In this document: piece after piece, positions 7,431 to 51,013 of the stretch
Numbering within the stretch: the first letter of the stretch is position 1
Layout: each line of letters starts with the position of its first letter
Source of the DNA: an uncultured Planctomycetaceae bacterium
Lineage (GTDB): Bacteria > Planctomycetota > Planctomycetia > Planctomycetales > Planctomycetaceae
Direction: 5' to 3'
Assembly (NCBI GenBank): GCA_963976765.1
Contig: CAXBME010000009.1
Span: 186,001 to 250,000 of the forward strand
Length of the DNA stretch: 64,000 bases
The notes under the pieces: generated by a model
What the model was told of the DNA's origin: nothing
Database searches by the model: none
Seen by the model: only the letters and a program-made list of their open reading frames with translations
Program-made: the position numbers and the translations under genes

Positions 7431-7456
7431 GAAGACGGGCGAATTCGCCCGTCTTC
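7431..7456. promoter_or_regulatory. Perfect 26-bp palindrome containing the GGGCG-N4-CGCCC island motif
   Basis: GAAGACGGGCGAATTCGCCCGTCTTC between divergent ubiA-like and ECF sigma genes. Confidence 0.65.
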
Positions 7457-7537
7457 AAACGCGAAAATCTGGACGACCAATGACTTTCAGAATTGTTGTC
7501 AGGTTTCGGGCGTGGGCCGAGTCTAATATTCCGTGTC

Positions 7538-8122
7538 ATGGAACAGGGAACTGACAACACGACTACGCTCGTGCCGACGTCGAGCGGTGATAGCAACGCT
7601 GGTCTCGTTGCGCAATTTCAGGCGGGAGAAGCTGAGGCATTCGAAGAACTGGTCACTGCGAATCACACGTGGCTCATGCGACTAATCAATCGGCTGATCG
7701 ATTCGACGGTCGAGGGCGAGGATGTGTTAGTTGCTGTGTTTCAGGGCTTGCCGCGATTCCGTCAGCAGTCAAGTTTCGCAACGTGGGTCACGACAATCGC
7801 CGTCAACAAATGTCGCACTCATCGCCGGCGTTCGACACGTCGGAAGTGGTTCAGTGCGTATCTGTTGCGTGGGGGAACGCTCGACTCGTATGAAACCGAT
7901 GACACGTCGTCTGATGATGCAGAGGAAGTTCGGCGTGCCGTGCGCGGTCTACCGGAAAAGTATCGTGAGCCAGTTGTCCTGCACTATTTCGAGCACATGA
8001 ACATGGTTGAAGTTGCAGGCGTGCTGCGGCTCAAGACTAACACAGTTGAGGTGCGGCTCAGCCGTGCCCGCCGCCTGTTGCGAACGGTACTCAATAGTCG
8101 AATTGACGGAGATCACGAATGA
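7538..8122 (+). CDS. ECF RNA polymerase sigma factor
   Basis: Region 2 AFEELV..SSFATWVTTIAVNKC; region 4 LPEKYREPVVLHYFE..NTVEVRLSRARR; start set to ATG 7538. Confidence 0.9.
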   Translation: MEQGTDNTTTLVPTSSGDSNAGLVAQFQAGEAEAFEELVTANHTWLMRLINRLIDSTVEGEDVLVAVFQGLPRFRQQSSFATWVTTIAVNKCRTHRRRSTRRKWFSAYLLRGGTLDSYETDDTSSDDAEEVRRAVRGLPEKYREPVVLHYFEHMNMVEVAGVLRLKTNTVEVRLSRARRLLRTVLNSRIDGDHE

Positions 8123-8709
8123 ACGACGAGCATCTTGAATCGTTGCTGCGACAAGCGGTTGAGTCCGAAGAACAACCGCGCGAACCGTCGTATCACCTTA
8201 CTGCAAACGTGCTGACCACTGTTGCACGACGTCAGAGGCGGCGGCGGCAGCTACTGATGACATCGAGCGTTGCCGGAGCCTATCTGGCCGGAATGCTGAC
8301 AATGTGGTTCTGTCTTCCCGCCAAAGACACTGCACAGGGAGTACCACGTCAGCAACAAATCGTCTCGCAAACTGATCGTCAGCCGTCACAAGACCCGACT
8401 CAACAACAGGAACCGGGGCTGGGCGAAATCTCAACACCCCAGGTCGACGAGCCAACTCAGGCCGTCGTTGTTGCGACGGAGCCACCGAGTCCTGTGAAAA
8501 GCGTTTATCAACTCTTTCGAGACCTGGGAGACGCAAGCCACGCACGGGGCGATGTGACTTCGTCCATTCGCTACTACCGACTGGCGCTGGAATCTGCTTC
8601 CAAACATGAACTACAACCGGCCGGCGCATCAGACAATCTTCTACTTCTTTCTCTCAAGCAGGATCGAATTGCAGCCACTCAACTCACGACTCATGGAGAA
8701 TCTTTATGA
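8119..8709 (+). CDS. Probable anti-sigma factor (single TM, C-terminal TPR-like helices)
   Basis: ATGA overlap with sigma; RRQRRRR then a hydrophobic helix; Q/P-rich linker. Confidence 0.65.
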   Translation: MNDEHLESLLRQAVESEEQPREPSYHLTANVLTTVARRQRRRRQLLMTSSVAGAYLAGMLTMWFCLPAKDTAQGVPRQQQIVSQTDRQPSQDPTQQQEPGLGEISTPQVDEPTQAVVVATEPPSPVKSVYQLFRDLGDASHARGDVTSSIRYYRLALESASKHELQPAGASDNLLLLSLKQDRIAATQLTTHGESL

Positions 8710-9674
8710 GCTTTCCACGCTGGAATACGTCGTCCCCGCTGTTCTCAGTGGTGTCCCTTTTGCTTCTGCTGGCGGTCTCTGTGCCAGGGATGGGACAGGA
8801 TACGAAGCCCGCGTCAGCGAAACCGGTCACCAGCAAGTCCACTGACAAAGCTGTCAAAGCATGGACATGCCCGATGTGTCCTCAGATTCATCAGCCGTCA
8901 GGAGGTTACTGCCCAATTTGCTCGATGCGGCTTGTCTCGGCTTCTCTTGATGGTGGAGAATCGCCGCTCAGTCTGGACGAGATGCTGACCATCGCCCTTC
9001 AACACAACCCCGACGTCCGCGCGGCTCGGGCCAAACTGCTGGCGGCCGAGGCAGAGCTGGATCGGACCCGGCTGACGGTCCTGCAACAAATCATCGCATA
9101 CCGGGAACGATGGAGTGCTCACAAGGCAGCTCTCACAGCCGCGACTGAGGAAGTCCGAACAGCACAATCGACTGCCACTCCGGGCGATCTGTCGGAGGCT
9201 CAAAAGACTGCAATGGCGAGACTGCTGGCGACGGCACGCAGGAAGCTGGCCTTCGAACAGGCACGCCTCAAGGAAGTCGAAGCGCAACAGCCGTTTCTAC
9301 TCGGAAGTCAAGGTGGCCACGCAGGCCATGACAACAGCGACGCCGAGACAGCAGTCATCAAGGACCGGCTGATTCCGATGATCGAACAACTCATCAAGGT
9401 GACAACCGAAGACTATCAAAAAGGGCAGGCGGAATTGTCAGACACGATCTCCTGGTCACGGCGGCTGGCCGAATTGAAAGTTCAGACCGTCACTACCAAG
9501 ACTGAACAGAGCGAGATTGTGCAGGCTCACATCATCCTGCTGAAAGACATGCAGGAAATGGCAGCTCAACGCTACAAGGCTGGTGCCGCAACAATGAAAG
9601 ACGTCCTTGCCGCTCAGATTCAAGTCGCCGAGGCGGAACTGTGGCTGGCGAAAGTCAAGAACGACGCGCCGTGA
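8706..9674 (+). CDS. Exported protein with heavy-metal-binding domain and TolC-like helices
   Basis: Signal peptide; WTCPMCPQIHQPSGGYCPICSMRL; LSLDEMLTIALQHNPDVRAARA resembles OEP helices. Confidence 0.7.
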   Translation: MSFPRWNTSSPLFSVVSLLLLLAVSVPGMGQDTKPASAKPVTSKSTDKAVKAWTCPMCPQIHQPSGGYCPICSMRLVSASLDGGESPLSLDEMLTIALQHNPDVRAARAKLLAAEAELDRTRLTVLQQIIAYRERWSAHKAALTAATEEVRTAQSTATPGDLSEAQKTAMARLLATARRKLAFEQARLKEVEAQQPFLLGSQGGHAGHDNSDAETAVIKDRLIPMIEQLIKVTTEDYQKGQAELSDTISWSRRLAELKVQTVTTKTEQSEIVQAHIILLKDMQEMAAQRYKAGAATMKDVLAAQIQVAEAELWLAKVKNDAP

Positions 9675-10653: not shown

Positions 10654-11205
10654 TCATCGAGTCAGGCGCGAAAGGAGCACGCAACGTTCCAGCGCAGTCA
10701 ATGGCTGGCGGACGCGAGGAATGGCATTCAAAACCGGAACACGAGATGGCGCCGCGGCCAGAAACTCGGACGCTGTCGAATACTCAGACAGCACCTGACT
10801 GCGCCACCCATCACCAGTTTCCAGATATGCTTGAATCGTGGTCTGGTGCGAATGCTCACAGCAGCAACCGGACTCGTCAGCGGCAACCAGACTCGCCGGA
10901 AGCAACGAAGAGCAGCACGACACATGTTCGCCGGAATGATCGCCCGCCTGGCCAGAGCAGCAGCCTGCTCCTGAAGAATCAGATTCCGAACTGTAAGACG
11001 ACGAACAGCACTGGCACGGGTCACCAGCCTCACAGCAGGAAGAGCCCGGTAGCGTCGAGACGAGGATCATCAAAACCAGCACGCTGTGCAGAGCACGCGT
11101 TACCTGATGTCGAATGATCTGTCGTCTTGTGCCAGTCACAATTCCACGTCCTGTGTGGTGAGAAGAGTTCACAATGCTGACCGTCATTATCGACTGAGAA
11201 GTCAA
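10654..11205 (-). CDS. Cys-rich putative exported metal-binding protein (start uncertain)
   Basis: Hydrophobic helix followed by CC, CQCC, CC, CC, CCC clusters (13 Cys in total). Confidence 0.55.
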   Translation of the reverse strand: MTSQSIMTVSIVNSSHHTGRGIVTGTRRQIIRHQVTRALHSVLVLMILVSTLPGSSCCEAGDPCQCCSSSYSSESDSSGAGCCSGQAGDHSGEHVSCCSSLLPASLVAADESGCCCEHSHQTTIQAYLETGDGWRSQVLSEYSTASEFLAAAPSRVPVLNAIPRVRQPLTALERCVLLSRLTR

Positions 11206-11368: not shown

Positions 11369-11382
11369 GGGCTAATTCGCCC
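11369..11382. promoter_or_regulatory. Island palindrome (one mismatch)
   Basis: GGGCTAATTCGCCC about 210 bp upstream of a sigma54 promoter. Confidence 0.55.
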
Positions 11383-11591
11383 CGTCGTGTTCACTCGCTG
11401 CGAGAAATGCCACGTGAGAGAAGAATCGCTTGAAAGGATTCAGTGGAAACAGCGCACGCATTCAAATGCAACGCTAACCATGAACAAGGCAGGGCGTCAC
11501 AGGATGCACCAGCTCTGTCGTGTCTTAGCCGGTTCCCGTCAAGGGAAGCGGATTTTCGACATGGGCGTTGCTGACGCAGTTCGCTTTCAGC

Positions 11592-11606
11592 TGGCACGAC
11601 TTGTGC
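11592..11606 (+). promoter_or_regulatory. sigma54 -24/-12 promoter
   Basis: TGGCACGACTTGTGC, GG-N10-GC, 80 bp before ATG 11687. Confidence 0.65.
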
Positions 11607-11686
11607 TTAACAGACTGGCCGAGTGTCGCGGTTGGCGACACAGACATCACACTGAGACCTTTAATTCATGCCAGGGAGGGCCGATC

Positions 11687-15027: not shown

Positions 15028-15088
15028 ACTATCGGTCGAGACTCAACCACGAGATTTCGCCCAAATATAGAATCCGCGGATTGGTCCG

Positions 15089-16474
15089 TCAGATGTCTAT
15101 CTTCTGATTCGCCTGGGCAACCTCCGCGTTACAGCCTCGTTCGCGCAGCGTGTTGCAGAAAGCGTCGGAGGATTCAGGCTCGCCGTGCACCAGATAGATG
15201 CGTTCCGGCGGGCGAATGAACCCGTCGACCCAGCGGAGCAGTTCGCTTCGATCGGCATGAGCCGAGAGTCCGTGGATTTGCTCGATGTGTGCATTGACCG
15301 GGATTTCCCGTCCAAACATTCGCACCATCCTTACGCCGTCCTGCAGTGATCGACCGCGTGTACCAATGGCCTGAAACCCGACGAGCAGAACCGTCGTCTT
15401 CTTATTCGGCAATCGCCGCTCCAGGTGATGCACGACGCGTCCGTTCGTGGCCATGCCACTTGCTGAAATGATAATGAGTGGCCCCTTCTTGTGGTTCAGG
15501 GCCTTCGATTCTGCAGGTGATCGTGTGAACGTCGGCGGCCGACAGCAGAGCGGACAGCGATGCTCATCCATCAGCAGCTTCATATCGATGTCGTGATCCT
15601 CTGGATGTCGGCAAAACACTTCGGTCGCGCTGGTTGCCATGGGGCTGTCGACATAGATCGGAAGTTTCGGAATGCGGCCTGCTTCTTCGAGTTCGTTCAG
15701 GTACCACAACAACTCCTGAGTCCGGCCGACCGCAAACGCGGGGATGAGAATCGCTCCTTTCCGACCTGCCGCCTCGTTGACGATTCGCGCCAGTTCGTTG
15801 CGAGCATTTTCCAGAGGATGGTCGCGATTTCCGTAAGTTGACTCCATCACTAACACATCGGCATCAAGCGCAAGTTCCGGATCCCGCAGCATCGGTCGCC
15901 CCCAGCGACCAAGGTCACCAGAGAAGACCAGTTTCTTTGGACGGTCTCCAATCTGCAGTTCCACCGTCGCCGAACCCAGGATGTGACCGGCCCGACGCAG
16001 CAGCACCTGGACCTCATCAGTCACCGGAAACAGTTCTCCGTACGTCCGCGTCTTGAGCAACTGCAGCGCCTGCTGCGCGTCGCGGGCTGTGTAGAGCGGC
16101 TCCGCGGGGTGATGCTTCGAGAAACCCTTGCGATTCGCATAGGCCGCCTGCTCTTCCTGAATGTGAGCGGAATCCGGCAACAGAATCTGCAACAGCGACT
16201 TCGTCCCTGGAGTACAGTAAACCGGACCGCGAAATCCCTTGCGCACCAGCAGTGGTAGATAGCCCGTGTGGTCGATATGGGCATGACTGAGCACGACGGC
16301 ATCCAGCGTCGACGGTTCCACAGGAAAGTGGTTCCAGTTCCGCTGCCGCAGTTCCTTCAGTCCCTGAAACAGTCCGCAGTCCAACAGAACTTTGCGGTGA
16401 CCGATCTGCAGCAGGTGTTTCGATCCTGTGACGGTTCCGGCTGCACCAAGAAATTGAAGTGTGGCTGTCGTCAT
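15089..16474 (-). CDS. MBL-fold beta-CASP ribonuclease (Ysh1-like)
   Basis: FLGAAGTVTGS, SHAHIDHTG, AGHILGS, SGDLG, MESTYG, SAHAD, LVHGE. Confidence 0.92.
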   Translation of the reverse strand: MTTATLQFLGAAGTVTGSKHLLQIGHRKVLLDCGLFQGLKELRQRNWNHFPVEPSTLDAVVLSHAHIDHTGYLPLLVRKGFRGPVYCTPGTKSLLQILLPDSAHIQEEQAAYANRKGFSKHHPAEPLYTARDAQQALQLLKTRTYGELFPVTDEVQVLLRRAGHILGSATVELQIGDRPKKLVFSGDLGRWGRPMLRDPELALDADVLVMESTYGNRDHPLENARNELARIVNEAAGRKGAILIPAFAVGRTQELLWYLNELEEAGRIPKLPIYVDSPMATSATEVFCRHPEDHDIDMKLLMDEHRCPLCCRPPTFTRSPAESKALNHKKGPLIIISASGMATNGRVVHHLERRLPNKKTTVLLVGFQAIGTRGRSLQDGVRMVRMFGREIPVNAHIEQIHGLSAHADRSELLRWVDGFIRPPERIYLVHGEPESSDAFCNTLRERGCNAEVAQANQKIDI

Positions 16475-16543
16475 GTGGGAGCCCCTTTCTGCAGTTACAT
16501 CACTACCCAGAATCACAATCCGGCACGCACGAACAACCGCTAC

Positions 16544-17347
16544 TTAGTGGTGCTTGTACCAGCCGGCTCCGAGGATATCGTTCCAGGACGTGGTCTGATG
16601 GCATTGCTGGCACTGGTGGACTTTCGCGTGCGGCTTCCCGGCGACTTTCGCAGAGATCATGTTGAAGTGCATCATGTAATGACTTGGCGGTGCCTGGTGG
16701 CACTGCGCACAGTCAGTCGATGACGGCGATGGATGCTGAAATTCCGGAATCGTCCAGCGATCAGTCGCGTGGCACTGAGCGCAGTCATTCCCGAAGAGCG
16801 TGAAATGACGATCGTCATTCAGGTGACATGTCGCGCAGTTCAATACCAGTTCGTCGGATGTGATGTGCGCGTGCGGCAGGCTGTTTTCCAGTGGTGCGCC
16901 TCGCAGCCAGTCCTTCAAACTCGCTGAAGTCAGACGGGATTCGGTGTCCGGCGAGTCATCGGCCGTCAGTTGCCGGAGCCCGATTCGCACGAGCGCGGAA
17001 TGATCCATGTTTGTGGGTCGCTCACCGGGACCACGGTGCTCCAGGTGACATTCCGTGCAACTGCTGACACTCGCGTGAAACGACGTTGGCTGGCGCTGCA
17101 GAATCGATTCATCATTCGCGTGGCAGACGATGCACTTTGCCGTCTCGACGCCCGTCACCGACGTGTGACAGGCAGCGCAATTGTTCTCCAGATGCGCATG
17201 CGCGGACGACAGTCGGCCGGGTTCAGTCAGACGCTGCCACGTGGACGGCTGTTTGAAACTCGAATCCGCCGGAGAAAGCCACCAGCCGGCAACGAGTGCC
17301 AGAGCGACACATCCCGTCACGACAAGTTGTTTCGTTCGTCGGGTCAT
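16544..17347 (-). CDS. Multiheme cytochrome c (7 CxxCH)
   Basis: CAACH, CIVCH, CTECH, CATCH, CAQCH, CAQCH, CQQCH; N-terminal TM/signal. Confidence 0.9.
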   Translation of the reverse strand: MTRRTKQLVVTGCVALALVAGWWLSPADSSFKQPSTWQRLTEPGRLSSAHAHLENNCAACHTSVTGVETAKCIVCHANDESILQRQPTSFHASVSSCTECHLEHRGPGERPTNMDHSALVRIGLRQLTADDSPDTESRLTSASLKDWLRGAPLENSLPHAHITSDELVLNCATCHLNDDRHFTLFGNDCAQCHATDRWTIPEFQHPSPSSTDCAQCHQAPPSHYMMHFNMISAKVAGKPHAKVHQCQQCHQTTSWNDILGAGWYKHH

Positions 17348-17350
17348 TGT

Positions 17351-17430
17351 TCAGTCCAGTGTCCAGTGCTGAGAGTCCAGAGAAGTGGAAAGCCGTGGGC
17401 TCTCGACTCTGGACACTCGACCCTCGACTC
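17351..17430. repeat. Inverted arrays of 7-nt tandem repeats
   Basis: AGTCCAG TGTCCAG TGCTGAG AGTCCAG ... CTCGACT CTGGACA CTCGACC CTCGACT filling the intergenic spacer. Confidence 0.75.
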
Positions 17431-18202
17431 AATCAAACCAGCGGAGTCCGAAGTGAATCGCCGCCCAGATGTGCAATGCCATCAGTCCGTAGAGCACGAC
17501 TGAGATCCAGATGTGGAAATTCAGCCATTTTCCAAACCACGTCTTGAATTCTTCATGCGTTTTGATCGCGTATTCGACATCGGCGATCGATTCGGAGAGA
17601 CGGAGCAGCGTTGCCGCGTCGGACATCGCGGATTGCGAGCCAGCGGTGACTGTCGCACTTTCGTGGACGAACAGACCAGCCAGCAGCCGACTGAAGAATC
17701 CGGAAAATGGTCGCAGCAGGCGAGCGTGTTGCGGGTCAACAGACAGTTCATCGGCCGCCTGTTGATAGGATGTCTGCAGCGTGGTGAGCATGGCCTTTTT
17801 CTCGCGGATCTCCTGAGAGAACTGGTTCATCAGGTAGCGGCCCACAAAACCGCTGATCACAACCAGCAGCGTCATTGCGATCAGCGCGATTCCCAGCGGA
17901 CTTTCGTATTTGTGGCCACTGTGAATCACGACCAGAACCGGCCCCAGCACGCCGGCATATATATGCCAGGCCAGCAGCGTCCGCATTGAAACCCACTTCG
18001 AGACATACTTCTTCAAACGCTTGTTGCGTTTTACCACCATGTAGGCGAGCGGAACGAGCATCAACACTGCGCCGACCACTCCCAGAATGCCACCCCACAA
18101 ACTGCCCGCAAAGCGTGGAGACTGGTGAAAGGGAAACCCCAGCCAGAGCACGAGCATCAGGACGACGAGGCCACTGATAATCAGGCGTTCTTTCTCTTTC
18201 AC
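17429..18202 (-). CDS. Membrane cytochrome b / ferric-reductase-like protein
   Basis: TM helices with candidate heme ligands WHIYAG, IHSGH, FHIW, LHIW; sits between FNR and multiheme cytochrome genes. Confidence 0.75.
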   Translation of the reverse strand: MKEKERLIISGLVVLMLVLWLGFPFHQSPRFAGSLWGGILGVVGAVLMLVPLAYMVVKRNKRLKKYVSKWVSMRTLLAWHIYAGVLGPVLVVIHSGHKYESPLGIALIAMTLLVVISGFVGRYLMNQFSQEIREKKAMLTTLQTSYQQAADELSVDPQHARLLRPFSGFFSRLLAGLFVHESATVTAGSQSAMSDAATLLRLSESIADVEYAIKTHEEFKTWFGKWLNFHIWISVVLYGLMALHIWAAIHFGLRWFD

Positions 18203-18203
18203 G

Positions 18204-21832: not shown

Positions 21833-23133
21833 GTCGAACTCGCTTTCTGATCCGCCGCAGATTCCGCCGATGTCCGGCAACAAAAGGGCAACTCTTTGAT
21901 CTGTTTGTGCTCCGGGAGATGAGTCGTCATTTCTGTCGGCTTAGTGCGACCGCCGTACCAGCGGGCGAAGGGAACGGCAGTCAAACCATGAGCGAAAACG
22001 CTCAAGAGCACCACTGTCATGACGGCAATGAAAATCTCATGCCGAAGTGGAACGCGACTGTCCTGAATCACCAGCAGTGCAAACACAACCGATGCCGTTC
22101 CGCGAGGACCGAACCACCCGAGAAACAGCACCGATTTCGGTTGCAATCCACTACCCAGCAGGCTGATCGCGACAGGTATCATTCTTGTCGCCGTGAGGCT
22201 GAGCACCGCAAAGGCCACAGTCGGCAGGGCAATTGCGTCAATGACCTGAGTCGCCATCAGAGCCCCAACCGCGAGAAAAACCAGCAGTGTCAGAAGTTGT
22301 CCTTCGGCCTCTCCAAATTCATGCACCCTTTGGCACACTCCAGGGGCGATATGGCCCATTACGAGCCCGCCGCAGAACGCTGCAATAAAGCCGTTTCCAC
22401 CGATGAGTTCTGCCAGGCCGAAGGCGACTCCTGCCAACGCCAGCGCTGCAAGATCGACAAAGGAACTGGCAGTCCACTCGCGCGATGTCGCCATCTTCAG
22501 CAACCGAGCGCCGACATAGCCAACACCGACACCAGTCAGCGGACCCAGCGTGATCTGCATAGCCGCGAACTGAAACCAATAGGCGGGATCGGCGTCGTGG
22601 CCGGTGGATCGAGCACCACACAGAAACAGCAGCACCAGTGGCACACAGATGCCGTCGTTCAAGCCGCTCTCGACGCTAAGCGTTTGCCGAATGCGAACAG
22701 GCACGATTCTGTTGCCGACCACAGGGTGTGCGAGCGACGCATCCGTCGGTGCAACAATTGCCGCCAGCAATGCAGCGTGCCAGATGGAGAACTCGGGGAA
22801 GCAGCCCATCGCGGCAACGGTTCCAGCAGCAATCGTGAGCGGCAATCCGATCAGCAGCAGACGCACCGGCAGATTGTGCTCGCGCCATAGAAGACGAAGA
22901 TTGATTCGCGATGCGTCGGTAAACAGAACGACGACGAGTGTCAGTTCCGCCAGGACGTGAACTGCAATCGACTCAGGTTCACCTCGCACCCAACCCAGGC
23001 CCTGCGAACCAATGGCAATCCCGATCGCAACAAACGCCATTGGTGGCGTAATGAAACTCCGCTGAGCACGAGCGGAAACCAGACTATAGCTGACAATGGC
23101 CAGTGTGATCGCCGTCAACGCGACAGTGTCCAT
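21829..23133 (-). CDS. Cation:proton antiporter, CPA1/NhaP type
   Basis: APTDA, ESGLNDG, GWFGPRG; GGAG RBS before ATG 23133. Confidence 0.9.
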
Positions 23134-27092: not shown

Positions 27093-27273
27093 CAGATTTC
27101 TCCTGAACGTGATTTATCGTGGTCCAGCAGTCGGGACCCGTGAGTGAAACCAGACAGCCCGATGTCGGGAATCGGTCGGCTGCTCGCGACTGCCATTCGT
27201 GACCTGGGTCACCAGGCCCAACTTTGTCGCCGACAAATTCGTGACGATCACGACCTGCATCAGATACCTCTCC

Positions 27274-27288
27274 GCGAACATCGTGCCA
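27274..27288 (-). promoter_or_regulatory. sigma54 -24/-12 promoter (leftward operon)
   Basis: Minus strand TGGCACGATGTTCGC, GG-N10-GC. Confidence 0.6.
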
Positions 27289-27385
27289 GGAAACCGAACA
27301 CGCCGGGAATTGAACTGACCGTCGAGGATTCAGGGATTTCGGATACGCGCGAGAGCGATCGTGAGCCGTAATGGCTCAACACCAA

Positions 27386-27399
27386 GGGCGGTTTCGCCC
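27386..27399. promoter_or_regulatory. Island palindrome
   Basis: aaGGGCGGTTTCGCCCtt between two divergent sigma54 promoters. Confidence 0.65.
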
Positions 27400-27597
27400 T
27401 TCGGTTTCAAGTATCCGTTCGGGATGGCGAGCGGAGACTGTCCGACAGGCGCGTCGCCGGTCGCACCACGATGCAGTCTGAATCACTCGAATCTGATCTG
27501 CTCAGAAACGGCACTGGCTACAATCCCAAAGGAACGTGCAGAATTTCAGTGTGCGTTCATGAACGAAGACTGGCGGCTCGCAGGAAGCAGGTCTGGT

Positions 27598-27612
27598 TGG
27601 CACGCAGTCTGC
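27598..27612 (+). promoter_or_regulatory. sigma54 -24/-12 promoter (hppA)
   Basis: TGGCACGCAGTCTGC, GG-N10-GC. Confidence 0.6.
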
Positions 27613-27711
27613 CCTGTTGCACTCGGAGACTTGCCGCTACTGCGGTATTCGTCGCGCTGAGTCCTCGTGACCTCTGCCGCGGCCTGTCGTCTGCTTTCCA
27701 GGAGTGGCGCT

Positions 27712-36827: not shown

Positions 36828-37054
36828 TTTGCACTCTCCTGACATAACGCTCTCTTCAGAGCAAGGAACCACTTTCAGGCAGTTAACCGAGCACTCCCAC
36901 GAGACGCGATAGTCTGCCAGGAATCTGCCGGAGCCGAACACACGTCGGCAGGTCCATGTGAAAGCACTTTCTGTACCAACAGTTTTTACGCCGTGATTCG
37001 AGTTCCACGTGCGGCCCGGACTGACGAGCAACGAGCCAACTCGCTCATCTGCTT

Positions 37055-37068
37055 GGGCGATTTCGCCC
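37055..37068. promoter_or_regulatory. Island palindrome
   Basis: GGGCGATTTCGCCC between divergent genes, about 120 bp upstream of a sigma54-like site. Confidence 0.65.
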
Positions 37069-37184
37069 CGCGCGAGTCCCGATTAGCGACGCTCGGTGTT
37101 CGAGTGCCTGAGTGAAACAGTCCATTCACGCTCAACGAACGATGTCAGTCGACCGTGCTCCGGGTATCCTCTGCGTGATGATTT

Positions 37185-37199
37185 CGGCATGGCCTGTGC
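37185..37199 (+). promoter_or_regulatory. Possible sigma54 promoter of copA
   Basis: CGGCATGGCCTGTGC, GG-N10-GC; weaker match to consensus. Confidence 0.45.
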
Positions 37200-37251
37200 G
37201 GTGAGGAGTTCGCAAGAGACTTCTCGGGACTCACACGATGGAAAGAAGCTG

Positions 37252-39712: not shown

Positions 39713-39726
39713 GGGCGAAATCGCCC
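39713..39726. promoter_or_regulatory. Island palindrome
   Basis: aaatGGGCGAAATCGCCCgttt upstream of tolC-MCO. Confidence 0.65.
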
Positions 39727-39928
39727 GTTTCGACTCCGGATGGGCAGTCTGTGTGAAGATATAGTGATCTGAGTTTGTCCGTTGGCTGGCTTTGCGACAT
39801 CCAGGAATGACGCTGCTCATGTTCGTGGCGGAATCCGTCGATTCGACAGTGACCAGTTTTTGCACGGGCGGACTGGACGCTCCGACCGTGCGCGATTTGC
39901 TGTCAACATGAGCAATGGCGTGTCAGGG

Positions 39929-43397: not shown

Positions 43398-44195
43398 TCA
43401 GAGTACTTCTACGGTGTGACATTGGTATCCGCCTAACGGAATCGAATCCACAGCATCAACGTGGGTGACGGGGCGACTGAACAGGATGGTTCGGCCCAGC
43501 CTGACCGTCAGACAGAGCGGGATGAATCCGGCTCGTGTAATGCCGGTTTCGGAAGAATGATTGAATGGCGAGCAGTCGACGAAAACCGGCCGCGTGTGCA
43601 TGTTGATGTCTGGGTCACGTGACGTCGCGATGTGTTGCAGTGCCCATCGGTAGAGTCCCAGGCCCCGGTATTCATATCGGGTGAAGCAGCGTTCGATGAT
43701 GCCTGGCCGCATACCGTTCGATGTTTCGTCCGGAGCGTGCGCCATCCTCGATGGCATATCCCCGTCATCGCACAACCGGAACCAGCACACACTCGCCAGG
43801 TCGCCCTGGTCCGTGCGAACAATCAGACATCGTTGCCCGGCATCCAGTCGCGCCAGAAACGTCGACTCTTCGCCGTAACTCCGCAGAAAGTCCCGGTCCC
43901 GCGGCGTCAGGTCCTCTGGTCGACACGCGACCGCCGCTTCGAATCCACCCGAGAGGAAACCGGGAGAACGGCCTGCCGTACTGCTGAATGCGAACCGGCA
44001 GGATATCCGCAGGCCGCACCTCTCCCCCAGCACGACAAACACGAGATAGGAAAACGTCTTCCACAACCCCAGGCGTCGAAGTCGAGTCCGGAACCGCCGC
44101 AGGGCGGATGAGGATGAGTTCCCCAGACATTCTGTACGAGGCCGGGCTTCGCAGCCCTCATGGGGTGCAGTCGTCATCAAGGTATCAGTAGCCAT
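43398..44195 (-). CDS. GNAT-like acyltransferase
   Basis: Motif A CFTRYEYRGLGLY; N.S..GITRAGF. Confidence 0.6.
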   Translation of the reverse strand: MATDTLMTTAPHEGCEARPRTECLGNSSSSALRRFRTRLRRLGLWKTFSYLVFVVLGERCGLRISCRFAFSSTAGRSPGFLSGGFEAAVACRPEDLTPRDRDFLRSYGEESTFLARLDAGQRCLIVRTDQGDLASVCWFRLCDDGDMPSRMAHAPDETSNGMRPGIIERCFTRYEYRGLGLYRWALQHIATSRDPDINMHTRPVFVDCSPFNHSSETGITRAGFIPLCLTVRLGRTILFSRPVTHVDAVDSIPLGGYQCHTVEVL

Positions 44196-44734
44196 AGATC
44201 GTCAGTCCTTCATCAGCCAACCAGGCGAGTTCTGATACAGAGTCAGCAAAGAGGCCTGGCGCCCTGTGTCACACACGACACTGCGGTTGCCCTATACAGC
44301 GAAATCCAGAAAGCCATCTCCAGTCGGCGACGAACTCGGCAGTTTGATATCTCCCGCCTGCGATCTGCCCGCATCAATCCTCAACCGATCGAGCACCGCG
44401 CGAGATTCAAAAGGCGAGTTACAACCTGAGTCTACACCGTGGCCGAACAGTGCGAGGTGATAACGTGCTTCACATGACGGAGGAATCGAGCACGTCATTT
44501 GCCTGTGCCACGATGTCAGGTCGCTCGCGCCGGGAATCGCCCATCACGTCAGACAGCAGTGGGAATGCGAGCGACACCGCTCATTAAAGATCGCTCGAAG
44601 GGCGTTTTCGCCTCAACAGCAGGTCGCGTTTCTGGACGCCGTTTGACCAGGCGGAGCAGACCAACATCCACCGGAACGGCTTCCGTGCCAAGTGGGAGAG
44701 CATTGCGCAGCGGTACCACGCGACGCCGGAAGAC

Positions 44735-45820
44735 CTACAGGTCCAGGTCTGCACCGCTGAGGTACCAGCGCTGGACATCGAACAACTCCGGATCGGCGTC
44801 GCGAAGCGTCTCGGCATCTCCGTAGACGAAAGTCTGCGACCGTTCCGGACGAGACTTGAAGCCGAATCTCTGCAGCCGCTGTGCGATCAGGTCCGTGCCG
44901 AAATACATCCAGGTGATTGCTGTCGGGCGGCTCTCGTGCTTTCGCATGTGGCAGAGGAATTCGCTCAACACGCAATCCAGAGCCGCCGTGCCGTCGAACA
45001 TGACGTCGGCGACTTCGATACTCGAATTACCAAGAATCTCGAAGACGATGTAGCCAATGAGTTCTCCCTGCGCATCGGCCAACCAGAAGGTCTGAAAGGT
45101 CGACTCTTGGCCTCCGTAGAATCGCCACGTCAGGTACTCGGATGTCCGTTGTGTTGCGATAGGGAATCGCGAGCGAACTCGTTCCCAGAATCGGTCAAAA
45201 CGGGAATCGTAAGTGTGTTCGAAACCGACGGTCACTTCGGCTGACCGGCGAGAATATGTTTCCCGGGAACTCAGCAGCAGCCCGGCATCGACCAGTGGAG
45301 CCGCGACTTTGGTCAACGCCGTCGACCGCAACCGTTTTCGGAGTTGGGATTCTGACCTGAGTATTTTCACCCAGCGCTGTGCGGTCCCGACGGACTTGCA
45401 ACGCGTACGCCGCAAAAGAGCAATCGCGTCTTCCGTCACTCCCAGCAGGAGCGTTCTGTTACTTTCCTTGAGTGAACCAAGTAACGCGCGCTGCATCCGA
45501 ACGGCCGGCCCGGCAGTGCGATACTCACTGTCCACAGCGAGGTTTCCAATCTGCCCGATATTATGGACCTGCCCGCCAAGGTTCAGTCTCTGAGCGTGAA
45601 GCCCGAATGCACCGCGTATTGCGTCACCGTCCGGTCGGTAGACCCAAATCTTCGCGACTTCGTAGGGGTTGGTGAGGTAATTATCAAACCGCTTATGAGC
45701 ATCACCAAAAGCCCGGCACCAGACCGCTTCGATTTCTGCCCGGTCGCGGTTCATGTCCGCAATTTCGATTGTCTCGCCAGACACCGAGGGCGACGGTTTC
45801 TCTATGACAGCCTGCCTCAT
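44735..45820 (-). CDS. GNAT-family acyltransferase (two-domain)
   Basis: LAVDSEYRTAG, RTSEYLTWRF, C-terminal WYLSGADLD. Confidence 0.8.
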   Translation of the reverse strand: MRQAVIEKPSPSVSGETIEIADMNRDRAEIEAVWCRAFGDAHKRFDNYLTNPYEVAKIWVYRPDGDAIRGAFGLHAQRLNLGGQVHNIGQIGNLAVDSEYRTAGPAVRMQRALLGSLKESNRTLLLGVTEDAIALLRRTRCKSVGTAQRWVKILRSESQLRKRLRSTALTKVAAPLVDAGLLLSSRETYSRRSAEVTVGFEHTYDSRFDRFWERVRSRFPIATQRTSEYLTWRFYGGQESTFQTFWLADAQGELIGYIVFEILGNSSIEVADVMFDGTAALDCVLSEFLCHMRKHESRPTAITWMYFGTDLIAQRLQRFGFKSRPERSQTFVYGDAETLRDADPELFDVQRWYLSGADLDL

Positions 45821-45868
45821 TGCAGCGGTATCCTTAGCCAGATTGGTTTCACATTCGCAACTTCGGGC

Positions 45869-46864
45869 TCACGACTCCAACACGCGCTCGATCAGTTCCG
45901 GGGAGCGGTGCAGGTAGTTCGTCGCTTTTCGTTTCGAGGCGATGTCGCTGTAGACGAACTTCACCTGATCCACACTCAGGCCGATCCCGGCGGCAACGTC
46001 CTCGGCGTCGAAGCCGTGATTCAGACCGAACAGGCAGCAGTCGAGCTGGTCGTACGGAACACTGAAGAAGAATTCTTCCTGACTCTGCGGCAGTGAGTAC
46101 GTGTCAGTTGTCGGCGGACGCATCCGAATCACTTCGGGGACGTCGAGGTATTCAGCCAGTTGATAGACCTGTGTTTTATAGAGGTGTGCAATGGGCTTAA
46201 TGTCGGCAGCCCCGTCGCCCTGCTTGACGAAGAACCCCTGATCGTATTCGAGCCGGTTCGGAGTCCCGACGACGGCGTAGCGCAGCCGATCGGCGTGGTA
46301 GTATTCCATCATCTTGCGACAGCGCTGCTTGAAGTTCGTCGCGGCGACGATCGTCTGATACGCGTCGAGCGTCAGCCGGGCCTGCTTGCGTTCGCCGGCC
46401 GGCGACTGCACGACGACACTCGACAGACTGAACCGTTCTCCCTGCAGCAGAGGCGGCAGCACGAGTTTGCTTTTCCAGTCCGGTTGATATTCCGGGATGA
46501 CGCTCTGAATCGCGGCGTCCCGGCGTTGATAACAACCGGCTCCGTCCAGCATCGGCGTGATGTCTTCCGTTATGGAGTTCACCCCCAGCGAATCTGCCAG
46601 CAGTTCGCCCAGCGCAAGGCTGTCGTCTTCGGAGTCCCGCTCCGGCATCATGATCCCGAAGACCCGCTGTGGACCGAGCGCCCGCACCGCCAGGGCTGCA
46701 CACACGGTCGAGTCAATTCCGCCCGACAGGCCGAGCACCAGCCCTTTGCGTTTGAAGTCGACGGCGACAGTTTCACGCATCCAGTCGCAGATGCGATCGA
46801 CCTCGGCTGCAGCGTCAAGTTTCAGAAACTCACGTGAAAAAAAGGCGTGTGTCGCGACAGTCAT
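45869..46864 (-). CDS. nadE: NH3-dependent NAD+ synthetase-like protein
   Basis: LGLSGGIDS, NFKQRCR, GTPNRLE, FFVKQGDG, PIAHLYKTQVY; GGAG RBS. Confidence 0.85.
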   Translation of the reverse strand: MTVATHAFFSREFLKLDAAAEVDRICDWMRETVAVDFKRKGLVLGLSGGIDSTVCAALAVRALGPQRVFGIMMPERDSEDDSLALGELLADSLGVNSITEDITPMLDGAGCYQRRDAAIQSVIPEYQPDWKSKLVLPPLLQGERFSLSSVVVQSPAGERKQARLTLDAYQTIVAATNFKQRCRKMMEYYHADRLRYAVVGTPNRLEYDQGFFVKQGDGAADIKPIAHLYKTQVYQLAEYLDVPEVIRMRPPTTDTYSLPQSQEEFFFSVPYDQLDCCLFGLNHGFDAEDVAAGIGLSVDQVKFVYSDIASKRKATNYLHRSPELIERVLES

Positions 46865-46893
46865 TATTGTTGTCTCCAAATACACCTGGCGTT

Positions 46894-48432
46894 CTACACC
46901 AGGACTTTCTTATCAATTTTGCCATTGGCGGTTCTGGGCAGGGCATCCCGAAACTCGACCTGCTGCGGAACCATGAAATCTTCCAGGAACGAACGGCAGT
47001 GAGACTGCACGTCGCGAACACTCACCTCGGCGTCGGACTGCAGCCGCACAACGGCTCGCACGGCCTGGCCAAGAACTTCGTCTTCCACTCCGATGACTGC
47101 GGCTTCAGCGATCTGCGGATGCTGATGCAGCACGTCTTCGACCTCTCGGGGACTGACCTTCTCGCCGCGGCTTTTGATGATGTCGTCCTTGCGACCAACC
47201 CAGTAAAGAAAGCCGTCCTCGTCCGATCGGAACAGGTCGCCGGTTGAGAGCCACATTTCGTGTGGAATCCTGCCGGGCCTCAAACGCTGGGCTGTAAGTT
47301 CAGGTGCTTCCCAGTACCCCTTCATCACGTTCGAGCCACGCACGACCAGTTCGCCGAGTTCGTTCGGCCCGAGTTCGTTGCCGTCGTCGTCGAGGATCAT
47401 CGTTTCGCAGTTTGGCATCGCGATGCCCACGGAGTCGGTCCGCCGGTCGATTTCTTCCGGCGGCAGGTAGCTGACCCGCTTGCACTCGGTCAGACCGTAC
47501 ATCGAGTAGATCCCCACATCGGGCAGAAGTTTTCGCAGCGTGGTGATGTGCTCGACCGGGAATGCGGCTCCGGTGTTGCTGAAGTAACGCAGCTTCGACA
47601 GGTCGTACTTCTTCAGGTCCATCTGCAGCAGGATGGCCACGATGGTCGGCACGATCGGGAATCCGGTGACTCCAAGATTTACAATTCTTTCGAGAACTGC
47701 GTGCGGATAAGTGAACGACTTTTCGAGGACCAGTGTGCCGCCGAAGTTGCAGCACATCAGCCATTGATACAGTCCGTAGTCGAAGCTGAGTGGCAGGACA
47801 TTGAGCACAATATCGCCGGGAGTATTACACAGGTACGTTGTAATTGACCTGTTCGCCGCGACCATATTTGCATGAGCCAGCATCACACCTTTGGGGTTGC
47901 CTGTTGACCCTGAGGTATAAACCAGTGCGGCCAGGTCGACGTCGATGCAGCGCTTCGCGGGCGGTGTGACGTTGTCGCTGTGCTCGTCGACGAGATCACT
48001 CCAGCCCGTCAGGGGATGCATGCAGTCGGCAACGTCCTCCGGGGCACCAACGACAACGACATTTCGCAGATGCGGTGTCTCTGACCAGATGGACTCGCAG
48101 CTACGCAGCCGTTTGCTCTGTCCAATAATGCAGACAGCTCGCGAGTTATTGAGCAGATACGTCAGCTTGTCGGGCTTCGTCGTGGGATTGGCCATGACGA
48201 ACACTGCCCCGGCCTTGAGTACGGCCCACACACCGACTGCGGCCTCAACACAATTGTCGAGAAACAGCACGACGCGATCGCCACGCTGCACACCACGCGC
48301 GATCAGACCGTGGGCGAGTTGATTCGCTTCGGTTTCGATCTCGCGGTACGTGAGCTGGCGGTCGCCAACGATCAGCGCGACCTTGTCCGGAGTCCGCGCC
48401 GCCGTCTGTTCGAGAAACTCTTCAAGTTGCAT
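46894..48432 (-). CDS. Class I adenylate-forming enzyme (acyl/aminoacyl-ACP ligase)
   Basis: YTSGSTGNPKG, PLSFDYG, YGLTE, TGD, NGKIDK. Confidence 0.9.
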   Translation of the reverse strand: MQLEEFLEQTAARTPDKVALIVGDRQLTYREIETEANQLAHGLIARGVQRGDRVVLFLDNCVEAAVGVWAVLKAGAVFVMANPTTKPDKLTYLLNNSRAVCIIGQSKRLRSCESIWSETPHLRNVVVVGAPEDVADCMHPLTGWSDLVDEHSDNVTPPAKRCIDVDLAALVYTSGSTGNPKGVMLAHANMVAANRSITTYLCNTPGDIVLNVLPLSFDYGLYQWLMCCNFGGTLVLEKSFTYPHAVLERIVNLGVTGFPIVPTIVAILLQMDLKKYDLSKLRYFSNTGAAFPVEHITTLRKLLPDVGIYSMYGLTECKRVSYLPPEEIDRRTDSVGIAMPNCETMILDDDGNELGPNELGELVVRGSNVMKGYWEAPELTAQRLRPGRIPHEMWLSTGDLFRSDEDGFLYWVGRKDDIIKSRGEKVSPREVEDVLHQHPQIAEAAVIGVEDEVLGQAVRAVVRLQSDAEVSVRDVQSHCRSFLEDFMVPQQVEFRDALPRTANGKIDKKVLV

Positions 48433-48470
48433 GTGTTGTGTTCCATATTGGAAACCGAAGTCCGCCTGTA

Positions 48471-48525
48471 GTAGCCACGTTCGCCAGAGCGTGATCGGGC
48501 TCCACCGTCCGGCGACGGTGGCTAC
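48471..48525. repeat. GTAG-type REP doublet (REPIN-like)
   Basis: GTAGCCACGTTCGCCAGAGCGTG ... CCACCGTCCGGCGACGGTGGCTAC, an inverted pair in the ACP-ligase spacer. Confidence 0.65.
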
Positions 48526-48535
48526 GTTGTGATCC

Positions 48536-48793
48536 CTATTTGGCTTCTTCCACCTTGGCCTCAATGAAAGTGATCAGGCGGTTGATCGAGTCGAGGTTGT
48601 CCGGCACGAGTTCTTCGTCTTCGACTGTGACGTCGAACTTGTCCTCAATGAACGTGACCAGTTCGAGCACGCCGGTTGAGTCGATGAGACCTTCTTCCAG
48701 CAGCGAGTCATCGCCGTCCAGCGACACGTTGGTGCGGCCAAAGAGGAAGTTGTCGGTCACGAACTCACGAACGTCGTTTTCAATCGCGGGCAT
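48536..48793 (-). CDS. Acyl carrier protein
   Basis: Acidic 85 aa, GLIDSTGVLEL phosphopantetheine site. Confidence 0.92.
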   Translation of the reverse strand: MPAIENDVREFVTDNFLFGRTNVSLDGDDSLLEEGLIDSTGVLELVTFIEDKFDVTVEDEELVPDNLDSINRLITFIEAKVEEAK

Positions 48794-48826
48794 GTTGTTG
48801 TTCTTTCCTGATAGTAGATTGGTTAG

Positions 48827-50788
48827 TCACACGGGGACCGTGTCCGGCACATCGACCGGCCGTCCCTTTACAAACTGTTCCACAACAAGCTGAGTCGACA
48901 GCACGCCGACCAGCGCCATGTTGTCTTTCGTGCCGATCGCGGCTCCGCGGCGAGCCTTCTCCACCAGCTTGCTGACGACGCCCGGATCGAAAAGCCCAGC
49001 CTCTTCAATGGCAGACTGCGAGAGCATCGCGTCGACATATTCGAAGCGGGCCATTCCAGAGTCGGTGTCGAAGAAGCTGTGCGCATCCGGTGCCCGGTAC
49101 GGTTGCTTGGCACGCTGCCGGATCGAATCCGGGACGAGATGTTTCGTGGCGTTCTTGAGAATGTGTTTCTCGTCGAGGCCCGCCATCTTGAGTCGCGACG
49201 GCAGCTTTGCACCGAACTCGACCAGACGGTGATCGAGGAACGGGAACCGACCCTCGATGCTGTTGGCCATCGTCATGCGATCACCCTGCGACGACAGGAT
49301 GTAACCCGGCATCAGTCCGCGCGTTTCCAGGTACTGTGCCTGCTCGAAGGAATCCCATTGTCGAAACGCAGCCGGCAGTTGTGCCTCGGCCTCGGTCACA
49401 GGATCGTGGTCGAATGTGGCTGCGAGCACGTCTGGCGTGAAGAACGCTTTCAACTTGCCGGTCAGTTCGAATCGCGGCAGGTGCGAGAAGAACGGATTCC
49501 CAGTCGTTTCCGGCTTCACACCGAAGAACGCTCGCAGATACGCCGGTGGCTGCGACTGAATGTTTTTCATGTACGGGTACAGCCGCTGGAGCAGCAGCGG
49601 TCGCACCCGCGACTCCGGCAACCGAGACCAGAAACGACGTAGCTTCGCCTCTTTGAATATGTCGTAGCCGCCGAATGCCTCGTCCGCTCCTTCGCCGGTC
49701 AGGACCACCTTGATGCCCGCATCACGCACGAGTCTCGATAATAGAAACATCGGAGCCGGCGCCGTTCGCAGGATCGGCGTCTCGGTGTGACGAATGACCT
49801 GTGGGAAGATTCTGCCGATGTCGTCGTGCGAACAGCGGACCGTGTGATGCTCGGTGCCGAGCCGCCGGGCGACTTCCTGTTGAAAGGTGCTCTCGTCGAA
49901 CTCTGGATTCTCAAATTCGACGGAAAACGTGCTGAGTCGCTCGCGGTTTAGGTCTTTGGCCAGAGCGGAGGTGATCGATGAGTCGAGCCCGCCGGAGAGA
50001 TACGCTCCGACCGGTACATCGCTGCGCAGCCGCAGCCGCGTCGCATCTGTGAGCAGGTCGAGCAATTGGTCTTCGAGTTCGCGGGACGAGATATTGTCGA
50101 AGGTCTCAGAGAAGTCGACATCCCAATACCGGGACACCGTGATCTTGCCCTCTTGGACAGTCAGCGAGTGACTCGGCGGCAAAAGGTTGATGCCTTCAAA
50201 AATCGTCCTCGGAGACTGCGGTGACCAGAATGTGCAGAGCTGATCGAGACCCACCGGATCGATGGCTCTGCTGACGCCTGGATGTGCGAAGATCGCCTTC
50301 ACCTCGGAAGCGAACAGAAACGTCTGGCCGCTGGTGGTGTAATACAGTGGCCGGATTCCAAGCCGGTCGCGCGAGAGGAACAGCTTTTTCTGACTGGCGT
50401 CCTGGATCGCGAAAGCCCACTGGCCGTTGAGGTGTCTGACGCAGTCCTCGCCCCATTCGGCGTACGCCTGCATAACGACTTCGGTATCGGACGTCGTCGT
50501 GAATCTTCGGCCGCGGCCGATCAGTTCCTGCCGCAGCTCGATGTAATTGAAAATTTCGCCGTTGAACGTGATGACCAGGTCAGCGTTATGGTCTTTGAAC
50601 GTCATCGGCTGCACGCCGCCGGCGAGATCGATGATGCTCAACCGTGTATGGCCGAGGGCGACCGACCCGCGCAGTTCAACCCCGTGTGCATCCGGACCGC
50701 GGTGATCCAGCGTCGCGACCATGTCCTCGACCGCTTCCTGTCGCACGGGCTGCCCGTCGAGTCTCTGGATGCCTGCAATTCCACACAT
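48827..50788 (-). CDS. asnB: Asparagine synthase (glutamine-hydrolysing) family amidotransferase
   Basis: MCGIAG, HRGPD, RLSIID, FNGEIFN, LSGGLDSS, GEGADE, RFPFLDH. Confidence 0.93.
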   Translation of the reverse strand: MCGIAGIQRLDGQPVRQEAVEDMVATLDHRGPDAHGVELRGSVALGHTRLSIIDLAGGVQPMTFKDHNADLVITFNGEIFNYIELRQELIGRGRRFTTTSDTEVVMQAYAEWGEDCVRHLNGQWAFAIQDASQKKLFLSRDRLGIRPLYYTTSGQTFLFASEVKAIFAHPGVSRAIDPVGLDQLCTFWSPQSPRTIFEGINLLPPSHSLTVQEGKITVSRYWDVDFSETFDNISSRELEDQLLDLLTDATRLRLRSDVPVGAYLSGGLDSSITSALAKDLNRERLSTFSVEFENPEFDESTFQQEVARRLGTEHHTVRCSHDDIGRIFPQVIRHTETPILRTAPAPMFLLSRLVRDAGIKVVLTGEGADEAFGGYDIFKEAKLRRFWSRLPESRVRPLLLQRLYPYMKNIQSQPPAYLRAFFGVKPETTGNPFFSHLPRFELTGKLKAFFTPDVLAATFDHDPVTEAEAQLPAAFRQWDSFEQAQYLETRGLMPGYILSSQGDRMTMANSIEGRFPFLDHRLVEFGAKLPSRLKMAGLDEKHILKNATKHLVPDSIRQRAKQPYRAPDAHSFFDTDSGMARFEYVDAMLSQSAIEEAGLFDPGVVSKLVEKARRGAAIGTKDNMALVGVLSTQLVVEQFVKGRPVDVPDTVPV

Positions 50789-50999
50789 ATTCGATGCCCC
50801 AGTCCGACCTGAAAGCCTCGACAAACCGGAGGCCGCACAGAATTCGATTCACTCTCGACTGACTCTAGGTCGAGACGATCGAGCATGCAGACGCGATGCG
50901 GTGCAGGTGACCAGGAAATCGAAGACGAGGCCATCTGCGCGAAGATGCCGGATTGCGCACCCCGCAAATCGCCCATCCTCTGAACTGGAACTTTCAAAT

Positions 51000-51013
51000 G
51001 GGCGAAATCGCCC
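51000..51013. promoter_or_regulatory. Island palindrome
   Basis: aaatGGGCGAAATCGCCC between divergent asnB cluster and His-rich cytochrome. Confidence 0.65.

Follow-up and report, generated by a model that had tools for sequence, protein, structure and literature searches.

What reads the palindrome GGGCG-N4-CGCCC, which stands at the head of several transcription units in a 64,000-nucleotide stretch of DNA from an uncultured Planctomycetaceae bacterium? The stretch, hereafter the window, covers positions 186,001 to 250,000 of contig C9 in a genome of 8.57 Mb in 95 contigs (G000; in our labels G is a genome, C a contig, L a fetched locus and P a protein row). A sequence-only reading had ascribed the copies to one dimeric regulator with a shared regulon. 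Comparative evidence (a matrix trained on other genomes, linkage to sigma-54 promoters, and the loci of one activator clade) supports that proposal. It suggests that the palindrome is quite probably the enhancer of an NtrC-family sigma-54 activator, encoded on contig C31 beside a protoglobin histidine kinase that would sense oxygen or haem redox state.

The palindrome and its link to sigma-54 promoters

Exact copies were confirmed at 7437, 27386, 37055, 39713 and 51000 of the window, five against a mean of 0.14 in 100 shuffles, none of which reached five. The one-mismatch copy at 11369 and the A/T-rich centres of all six were confirmed as well. All six are intergenic by our gene calls, which came from our own hexamer model in G000 and from a simpler open reading frame (ORF) picker in relatives and make "intergenic" an approximate label. 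Five copies had been placed in divergent spacers; this holds, but at 11369 it is conditional on the Cys-rich ORF 10654-11205 being a gene, for which a homologue search found no homologue, and the spacer of 39713 is a tandem one. As a class, one-mismatch copies were scarcely above chance in the window (11 vs 4.5). The partial copies put forward near 15054, 44535 and 50966 turned out to be half-sites of low score (0.6, -1.8 and -14.2 bits, where the six reach 14-22 bits), and the first sits between convergent genes. Overlooked at the time were a pair of sites at 44569 and 44600 and partner sites at 37033 and 51031.

Genome-wide, exact copies with the 5-N4-5 spacing number 24 (1-16 for other spacer lengths from 0 to 10). 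A/T-centred copies occur on C9, in the window only, at the end of C31, and on C50, C60, C62 and C68; the proposed regulon extends over five more contigs. A matrix of 14 seed sites, followed by further intergenic sites on the same contigs, gave the refined consensus G[A/G]GCG-W4-CGC[C/T]C. Its strict form has 23 matches in the genome (18 island-intergenic, 1 island-intragenic and 4 elsewhere) against a single match for the reversed pattern; the island regions, which represent two paralogous metal/stress islands, total 159 kb, or 1.9% of the genome, within limits drawn after the hits were known. A less circular test used a second matrix trained on other genomes only, with a cut-off of 14 bits. 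It gave 30 intergenic G000 matches at or above the cut-off, 23 of them in islands, and recovered all six reported sites (11369 at 14.3 bits) and, newly, 44569.

The palindrome might be no protein operator at all, but an RNA hairpin or terminator, a transposon or recombination site, or chance. The copy at 39713 lies 59 bp past the stop codon of copA and can be lengthened to a stem of 8 bp, the island is downstream of Tn7-like genes, and 79 of 151 genomes have a string match, which in many relatives falls in coding DNA too. Raw genome-wide counts fail to separate activator-bearing from activator-free genomes (3-12 vs 5-10 matches in ten genomes, some of which had been chosen because their counts were high); the two kinds differ only in how the matches cluster and in whether they are intergenic. 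However, positions 2 and 13 vary independently across 56 sites (G-C 29, A-C 11, G-T 10, A-T 5, T-C 1), which breaks a stem and argues against an RNA structure. Most copies, moreover, stand upstream of promoters in divergent spacers, and the sigma-54 linkage and helical phasing described below would be unexpected of such elements. We regard this explanation as largely refuted and barely credible. Scans of the window for tRNAs and Rfam families gave no matches.

Sigma-54 elements were scored with a fixed -24/-12 consensus, untrained on these sites (top score 23.5, cut-off at least 20), at 50-260 bp from the box, with random intergenic points and inward-pointing elements as controls. An outward-pointing element was found at 9 of 21 G000 sites, against 5.1% of random intergenic points, and an inward-pointing one at none of the 21. 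In relatives such elements lie near 14 of 35 sites; on contig C166 of genome G557 they accompany 7 of 10 sites but only 17 of 198 box-free intergenic points. Overall, about 40% of sites have a sigma-54 promoter 70-260 bp downstream, and rpoN is present in G000. The seven off-island intergenic matches had no sigma-54 element above 17.5. A partner site (at least 4 bits, at most 80 bp away) accompanies 51 of the 56 sites examined, the best one at 19-22 bp in 17 and at 29-32 bp in 15, spacings of two or three helical turns. Alignments of orthologous spacers keep box and promoter within diverged DNA; within one subclade, for example, all four kinase-proximal spacers have TTGGCAC-N5-TTTGC 129 bp past the box. 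The box thus likely belongs to a known class, that of NtrC/sigma-54 enhancers, although the sequence-only reading had recognised no matching operator.

The activator clade and its sister

C31 encodes, at 96425-97765, a receiver-AAA-helix-turn-helix (HTH) protein (Pfam Response_reg, Sigma54_activat and HTH_8). A protoglobin histidine kinase (93028-94374) is encoded there too, as are a single receiver and an ECF/anti-sigma pair. The earlier remark that no obvious cognate regulator lies in the window is supported, with the candidate activator on C31. C60 encodes a second activator, 67% identical to the first, and the kinase gene is absent there. The GAFTGA motif is kept in 21 of 21 aligned activator sequences. 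By HTH profile, the clade occurs in 8 of 398 genomes of the family and in none of the 7 other genomes of the window's genus; in a separate search of 401 genomes of the class, four exceeded 100 bits and the next reached 71.5. A PDB search with the HTH returned only weak NtrC/Fis matches, below chance repeat hits.

The box adjoins the clade's activator gene in all eight carriers, 227-416 bp upstream in G005, G147, G024, G105 and G557 and within about 2 kb in G000, G065 and G068. That of G557, which shares a genus with G024 and G105, was forecast beforehand and then found. At eleven clade loci, 174 kb contain 29 sites (with those of G000 set aside, 140 kb contain 21), against 3 sites in 448 kb at 23 loci of sister-clade or related activators. 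In four clade-free genomes, 11 matches were examined of 40 listed for five genomes; seven lie inside long ORFs, four in spacers or short doubtful ORFs, and none of the 11 has a sigma-54 element of at least 19. The link to the window comes from three contigs (C6 of G147, C248 of G105 and C166 of G557) that carry the kinase, the activator, cusBA and homologues of window genes together: the cytochrome c cluster, glutamate dehydrogenase, the antiporter and M50 on all three, glycogen phosphorylase and CBM48 in G147 and G105, LTXXQ in G147 and G557, and copA in G557. Together, these data lead us to assign the box to this activator with considerable confidence. In G068, an IS21 element (L020:470-2748) lies directly upstream of the activator gene, where the kinase would be expected.

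Independent support for the assignment comes from the sister clade, whose box has the same geometry. In a tree of 35 activator proteins, the island clade (10 rows) is monophyletic with support of 99/97 and the sister clade (20 rows) with 97/97. A de novo dyad count at the control loci found GTGC-N6-GCAC in 10 of 23; it resolves to G[T/C]GCG-N4-CGC[A/G]C, beside sigma-54 promoters, and so differs from the island box by one base per half-site. When position 2 was not fixed, 33 of 34 island half-sites had a purine there and 35 of 44 sister half-sites a pyrimidine; it counts against this comparison that some island loci had been fetched because of a box match. The first HTH helix carries Arg in 10 of 10 island rows and Lys in all 21 other non-outgroup rows, and this residue would be the one that reads position 2. 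Both systems are present in G005 and G147, each beside its own box. Sister boxes were seen at L053:12181 and 15567, at L055:3860 and 13041, and in L105-L124, near USP, N-ATPase, beta-CASP and kinase genes.

G000 itself has resident Nmp-like activators of this kind on C14 and C3. They share with the island activator 51-58% identity, the box geometry, the sigma-54 arrangement and overlapping target types (N-ATPase, beta-CASP, CBS), but differ in T/C at box position 2, in Lys in the first HTH helix, in other receiver specificity residues and in USP-rich loci, the C14 locus including a REC-PAS-PAS hybrid kinase. The boxes could then be read mainly by these residents (C14:100716, C3:327038), with the island activator a passenger. 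The two boxes are one base apart per half-site, mixed half-sites occur at resident loci, and island sites reach 15-19 bits by the sister matrix. Yet it is only in the presence of the island clade that purine boxes form clusters, the matches examined in clade-free genomes behave as described above, and the island HTH is strongly conserved. We consider this reading decidedly unlikely.

Could the box belong to some other dimeric factor, such as a NarL/FixJ-type protein with a DosR-like site or one of the island's MerR, LysR or DtxR proteins? The DosR site has the same 5-N4-5 geometry, about half of the sites lack a sigma-54 promoter, some stand just before a sigma-70-like -10 element, and MerR, LysR and DtxR-like genes lie in the window. 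Against this, Pfam found no NarL-type gene in the island contigs of G000 that were scanned, the spacers of merR, lysR and dtxR in the window have no box, and a box of the same geometry tracks the sister NtrC clade at USP-rich loci. The DosR/NarL-type reading was dropped on the sigma-54 and sister-clade results, and as a whole this alternative appears very improbable.

Kinase, signal and wiring

The kinase linked to the activator contains Pfam Protoglobin and HATPase_c domains and nothing beyond globin and kinase. Its globin part aligns with that of AfGcHK (5ohe; E 2.2e-10), a characterised sensor homologue from Anaeromyxobacter, including the FY tyrosine and the proximal histidine of the haem pocket. 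A globin-based oxygen or redox input is thus reasonably likely. The resident C14 kinase is closer to the AfGcHK globin (E 2.2e-23) and neighbours the REC-PAS-PAS hybrid kinase, an activator and USP genes, which makes C14 the closer Nmp counterpart.

The island system resembles NmpRSTU of Myxococcus xanthus (PMC6211767, PMC11841059) in its proteins, namely a soluble protoglobin histidine kinase, a receiver-only protein and an activator of the NtrC-like sigma-54 type. Further common features are dyad enhancers that occur in pairs, their centres about 29-30 bp apart, in front of sigma-54 promoters; autoregulation, which in the island would apply in some genomes; targets that include CBS and P-type ATPase genes; and the half-site G-N-G-C-R. 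The box there is a 15-bp GCGCA-N5-TGCGC, whereas it is the 14-bp G[A/G]GCG-W4-CGC[C/T]C here, and the targets there are cbb3 oxidase, hemN and pili, those of the island being copper and heavy-metal export and ion and energy homeostasis. The Nmp-type box gave only scattered one-mismatch matches in the 11 loci scanned, and no NmpS-like hybrid receiver-kinase was found at the mapped island loci. These loci have a single receiver of 134-136 aa; double, NmpT-like receivers occur only at the sister loci L111 and L119. The island kinase is a separate lineage, 31% identical in its globin part to the host's NmpU-like kinase, and the island system is patchy and island-borne. Judged by these sequence features, the system is a variant of Nmp-like globin-kinase/NtrC systems rather than a member of NmpRSTU. 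One report mentions nmpSTU homologues in Planctomyces sp. SH-PL14 (PMC6211767). Our literature search, with most subscription journals and curated databases of regulons out of its reach, returned no publication that describes this box or regulon.

As to wiring, the island activator and the single receiver share the motifs ARRL (helix 1) and KPCxFxEL (loop), which are absent from the resident activators; NmpS/NmpT-like receivers share a different motif set. Direct phosphotransfer is therefore the simplest reading. The kinase would phosphorylate the activator directly, with the single-domain receiver as a phosphate sink, and the phosphorylated activator would oligomerise on paired boxes and open sigma-54 promoters of copA, cusBA, hppA, V-/N-type ATPase, glycogen and phosphoketolase genes; some genomes would add the activator gene itself to this list. 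The one-base shift from the sister box would partly insulate the island from the host's Nmp-like system. In G005, G147 and G105, Glu replaces the phospho-Asp of the single receiver (L015:8841-9245; L012:60-464; L094:910-1572). In the C60 activator (L004:8172-9530), the acidic pocket is lost and the phospho-site is Glu, with GAFTGA and HTH intact, and the same applies to five more of the 21 aligned sequences (P0005, P0007, P0008, P0015 and P0017). The D54E form of NmpR is described as phosphomimetic (PMC6211767), and the C60 form may thus be signal-independent.

Across genomes, the targets include V- and N-type ATPase operons, phosphoketolase-acetate kinase, glycogen enzymes and hppA, as well as CBS and BON proteins, cusBA, copA and OEP. 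Because of this energy-stress mix, we lean slightly towards low oxygen as the inducing state. The signal might instead be metal or thiol stress, with the same activator and box and the regulon a copper response, as the Cu/Zn comparison suggested in the sequence-only reading implies; haem oxidation, a Cys/His-rich TRASH lipoprotein or the ECF/zinc anti-sigma pair, for example, could then provide the input. Copper export does figure among the targets: copA, cusBA, OEP and multicopper oxidase are all there. A gene for a His-rich TRASH-like lipoprotein directly precedes the kinase in G000, G005, G147, G065 and G105, and an ECF gene with a zf-HC2 anti-sigma is adjacent. Yet the sensor linked to the activator belongs to the globin kinases and is no sensor of Cu/Zn. 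Its most hydrophobic stretch lies within the last helix of the globin, and with its domain content this means that an exported metal-binding protein cannot reach it directly. Non-metal targets are many (phosphoketolase, acetate kinase, N-/V-ATPase, glycogen enzymes, CBS, BON), and no box lies within 500 bp of resident copA/cus (C17), hppA (C29) or czc (C70), so that the box follows the island and not the gene family. A metal or thiol signal is therefore unlikely. ZraSR of E. coli and CorSR of M. xanthus likewise use an NtrC-type activator to control metal or envelope genes through sigma-54, but their sensors are membrane-anchored and detect periplasmic metal, whereas the linked island kinase is a cytoplasmic globin. 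A ZraR match was obtained below cut-off only.

Several observations weigh against the reading of the box as an enhancer of this kinase-linked activator. Twelve of 21 G000 sites, three of the six reported among them, have no sigma-54 element of at least 20. The activator is absent from the window's contig, to which gene content would link it, and the end of C9 showed no exact overlap with C31, nor one that would confirm a continuation into C62-C68-C31. In G000, the promoter next to the kinase serves the gene of a secreted protein of 138 aa, and between kinase and activator lies a peptidase gene on the minus strand; autoregulation by position does not hold directly there. A 688-aa plus-strand ORF, considered as an operon link between the two, was rejected as a shadow of the peptidase gene. 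The eight carriers represent five genera sharing one island and are not independent, and the ECF/anti-sigma pair co-travels with it; co-occurrence alone thus cannot exclude that pair, against which stand the palindromic form of the box, its link to sigma-54 promoters and the box of the sister clade. By the sister matrix, island boxes reach as much as 18.7 bits, so that resident activators may bind them and cross-talk is possible. Both NmpU and AfGcHK are active when oxygen is present, a sign that NmpS then inverts (PMC11841059, PMC6211767); if the island kinase acts like NmpU and AfGcHK, direct wiring would give the opposite sign to that favoured here. Finally, a regulator that represses cusC while it activates cusBA would act incoherently.

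Promoters of the window and the surrounding island

In the window, sigma-54 elements of at least 20 accompany the boxes at 11369 (on the right), 27386 and 37055 (on both sides). Box 11369..11382 (GGGCTAATTCGCCC, one mismatch) lies upstream of a predicted secreted protein and glycogen phosphorylase (+), with a predicted -24/-12 promoter at 11591..11607 (+; CTGGCACGACTTGTGCT) scoring 22.5 of 23.5. Box 27386..27399 (GGGCGGTTTCGCCC) is a candidate bidirectional enhancer between predicted promoters for a 12-kb leftward operon (27273..27289, -; CTGGCACGATGTTCGCG) and for hppA (27597..27613, +; TTGGCACGCAGTCTGCC). The operon comprises LTXXQ, CBM48, AlbA, TRASH, antiporter, glutamate dehydrogenase, oxidoreductase, cytochrome c and beta-CASP genes, and the LTXXQ homologue is likewise preceded by a box and sigma-54 promoter in G147 and G557. 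Box 37055..37068 (GGGCGATTTCGCCC), with a partner 22 bp away at 37033..37046 (GAGCCAACTCGCTC), would act in the same way between an operon for a secreted protein, an M50 peptidase and a Na+/H+ antiporter (predicted promoter 36963..36979, -; TTGGTACAGAAAGTGCT) and copA (predicted promoter 37184..37200, +; TCGGCATGGCCTGTGCG). Orthologous boxes and promoters precede the M50 operon in G147, G105 and G557 and copA in G065. The site pair 44569..44613, GAGCGACACCGCTC (44569) and GGGCGTTTTCGCCT (44600), 31 bp apart, lies upstream of 43398-44195 (-), with a weaker sigma-54-like element for site 44600 at 44489..44505 (-; CAGGCAAATGACGTGCT, score 19.6). A further perfect match, GAGCGAAAACGCTC at 21990..22003, falls inside the Na+/H+ antiporter gene, at its 3' end, and thereby ahead of the gene for glutamate dehydrogenase. 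It is identical in G105 and G024 but within a conserved peptide, and its status is uncertain; this match and another intragenic one at 22344 are inseparable from coding constraint.

The fixed-consensus scan found no sigma-54 promoter at 7437, 39713 or 51000. The first box (7437..7450, GGGCGAATTCGCCC) occupies the divergent spacer between a UbiA-PMT-phosphatase operon (-) and ECF sigma/anti-sigma genes (+), and is kept at the paralogous UbiA promoter C50:11082. Box 39713..39726 (GGGCGAAATCGCCC) precedes tolC-multicopper oxidase and is followed 33 nt on by TATAGT (39760..39765, +), possibly a sigma-70 -10 element. This distance is similar to that at the OEP promoters, where in five of five orthologues a partner follows the box by 30-31 bp and TAAACT/TAAGCT comes 5 bp later (35-36 nt from the box). 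Between the AsnB-ACP cluster (-) and a 563-aa gene (+), 51000..51044 holds a second copy of GGGCGAAATCGCCC (51000) and its partner GGGCGATGCAGCCC (51031), 31 bp apart. At these three sites and at OEP, the same protein may act on sigma-70-family promoters, as repressor or activator. FleQ of Pseudomonas aeruginosa acts at sigma-54 promoters and, via tandem boxes, at sigma-70 promoters (PMC10723142); with another box, input (cyclic di-GMP, FleN) and targets, it is a precedent only. Downstream of the box opposite the ECF gene, GAAGAAA and GGCATC[C/T]AA are conserved (L001:9855-10000; L004:6972-7100; L037; L038; L019), possibly because the Cys/His-rich genes and the kinase are read from an ECF promoter there.

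The AsnB-ACP-AMP ligase-NAD synthase-like-GNAT cluster (44735-50824), with the box pair at its head, has no homologue in any fetched island locus and is thus likely a late insertion. A FAD/2Fe-2S oxidoreductase, a 257-aa unknown and a multihaem cytochrome c form a trio at 15089-20339 that is conserved in the islands of G147, G105 and G557. DUF1559 genes are present in the window and help to place the system among planctomycetes. The copA stretch was found in 17 DNA sequencing runs and, as a small share, in one RNA run, whose contigs fall outside the spacers and are uninformative on expression.

Tn7-like tnsA, tnsB, tnsC and tniQ lie 12-18 kb left of the window (C9:167.7-173.6 kb; L009:17707-20000, L007:507-3557), with a Ku gene before them and a DUF1257-AAA-ThiF module after. 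This module has paralogues on C5, C12, C27, C33, C56 and C80 and flanks the island in G005 and G065. Genes of C50, C60, C62 and C31 have paralogues on one another's contigs and in the window. C68 shares 55-bp overlaps with C50 and C62 at one of its ends and with C31 and C60 at the other, which makes it a collapsed repeat of two islands. Since C50 and C60 duplicate window genes and C62 and C31 do not, the window's island would continue into C62-C68-C31. PRTase-CE, ORC-CDC6-like ATPase, HAD and PfkB genes (window 1-3603 and L007:12379-16528) resemble a nucleotide-based defence module. On C31 (64.6-69.7 kb; L008:2645-7700), a SAVED protein, a CD-NTase-like cyclase and a Cap2/3-like gene form a CBASS-like system, which adjoins a V-type ATPase operon bearing a box pair and sigma-54 promoter. 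DtxR-like, merR and merT/HMA genes occupy window 62668-64000 and L010, and past the mer genes C9 ends in a stretch similar to the start of C60.

Taken together, the data allow a picture that we put forward only tentatively. A mobile island would have its copper export (CopA, CusBA) and its energy-stress genes controlled through direct wiring by a haem-gas sensor and not a metal sensor, insulated from the host by a one-base enhancer change and an HTH Lys-to-Arg exchange, with a kinase-less second copy whose pseudo-receiver (Asp-to-Glu) activator would run the regulon signal-free. If the signal is oxygen or redox state, the metal resistance of the island would be anticipatory and not metal-induced. 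For Planctomycetota, the analysis provides a testable pair of transcription factor and site with its regulon and, as a by-product, the box of a far more widespread resident Nmp-like system. Two paralogous activator/box pairs, one base and one helix residue apart, co-occur in single genomes, a natural experiment in which to see by what means a newly gained regulon is kept from cross-talk with its host.

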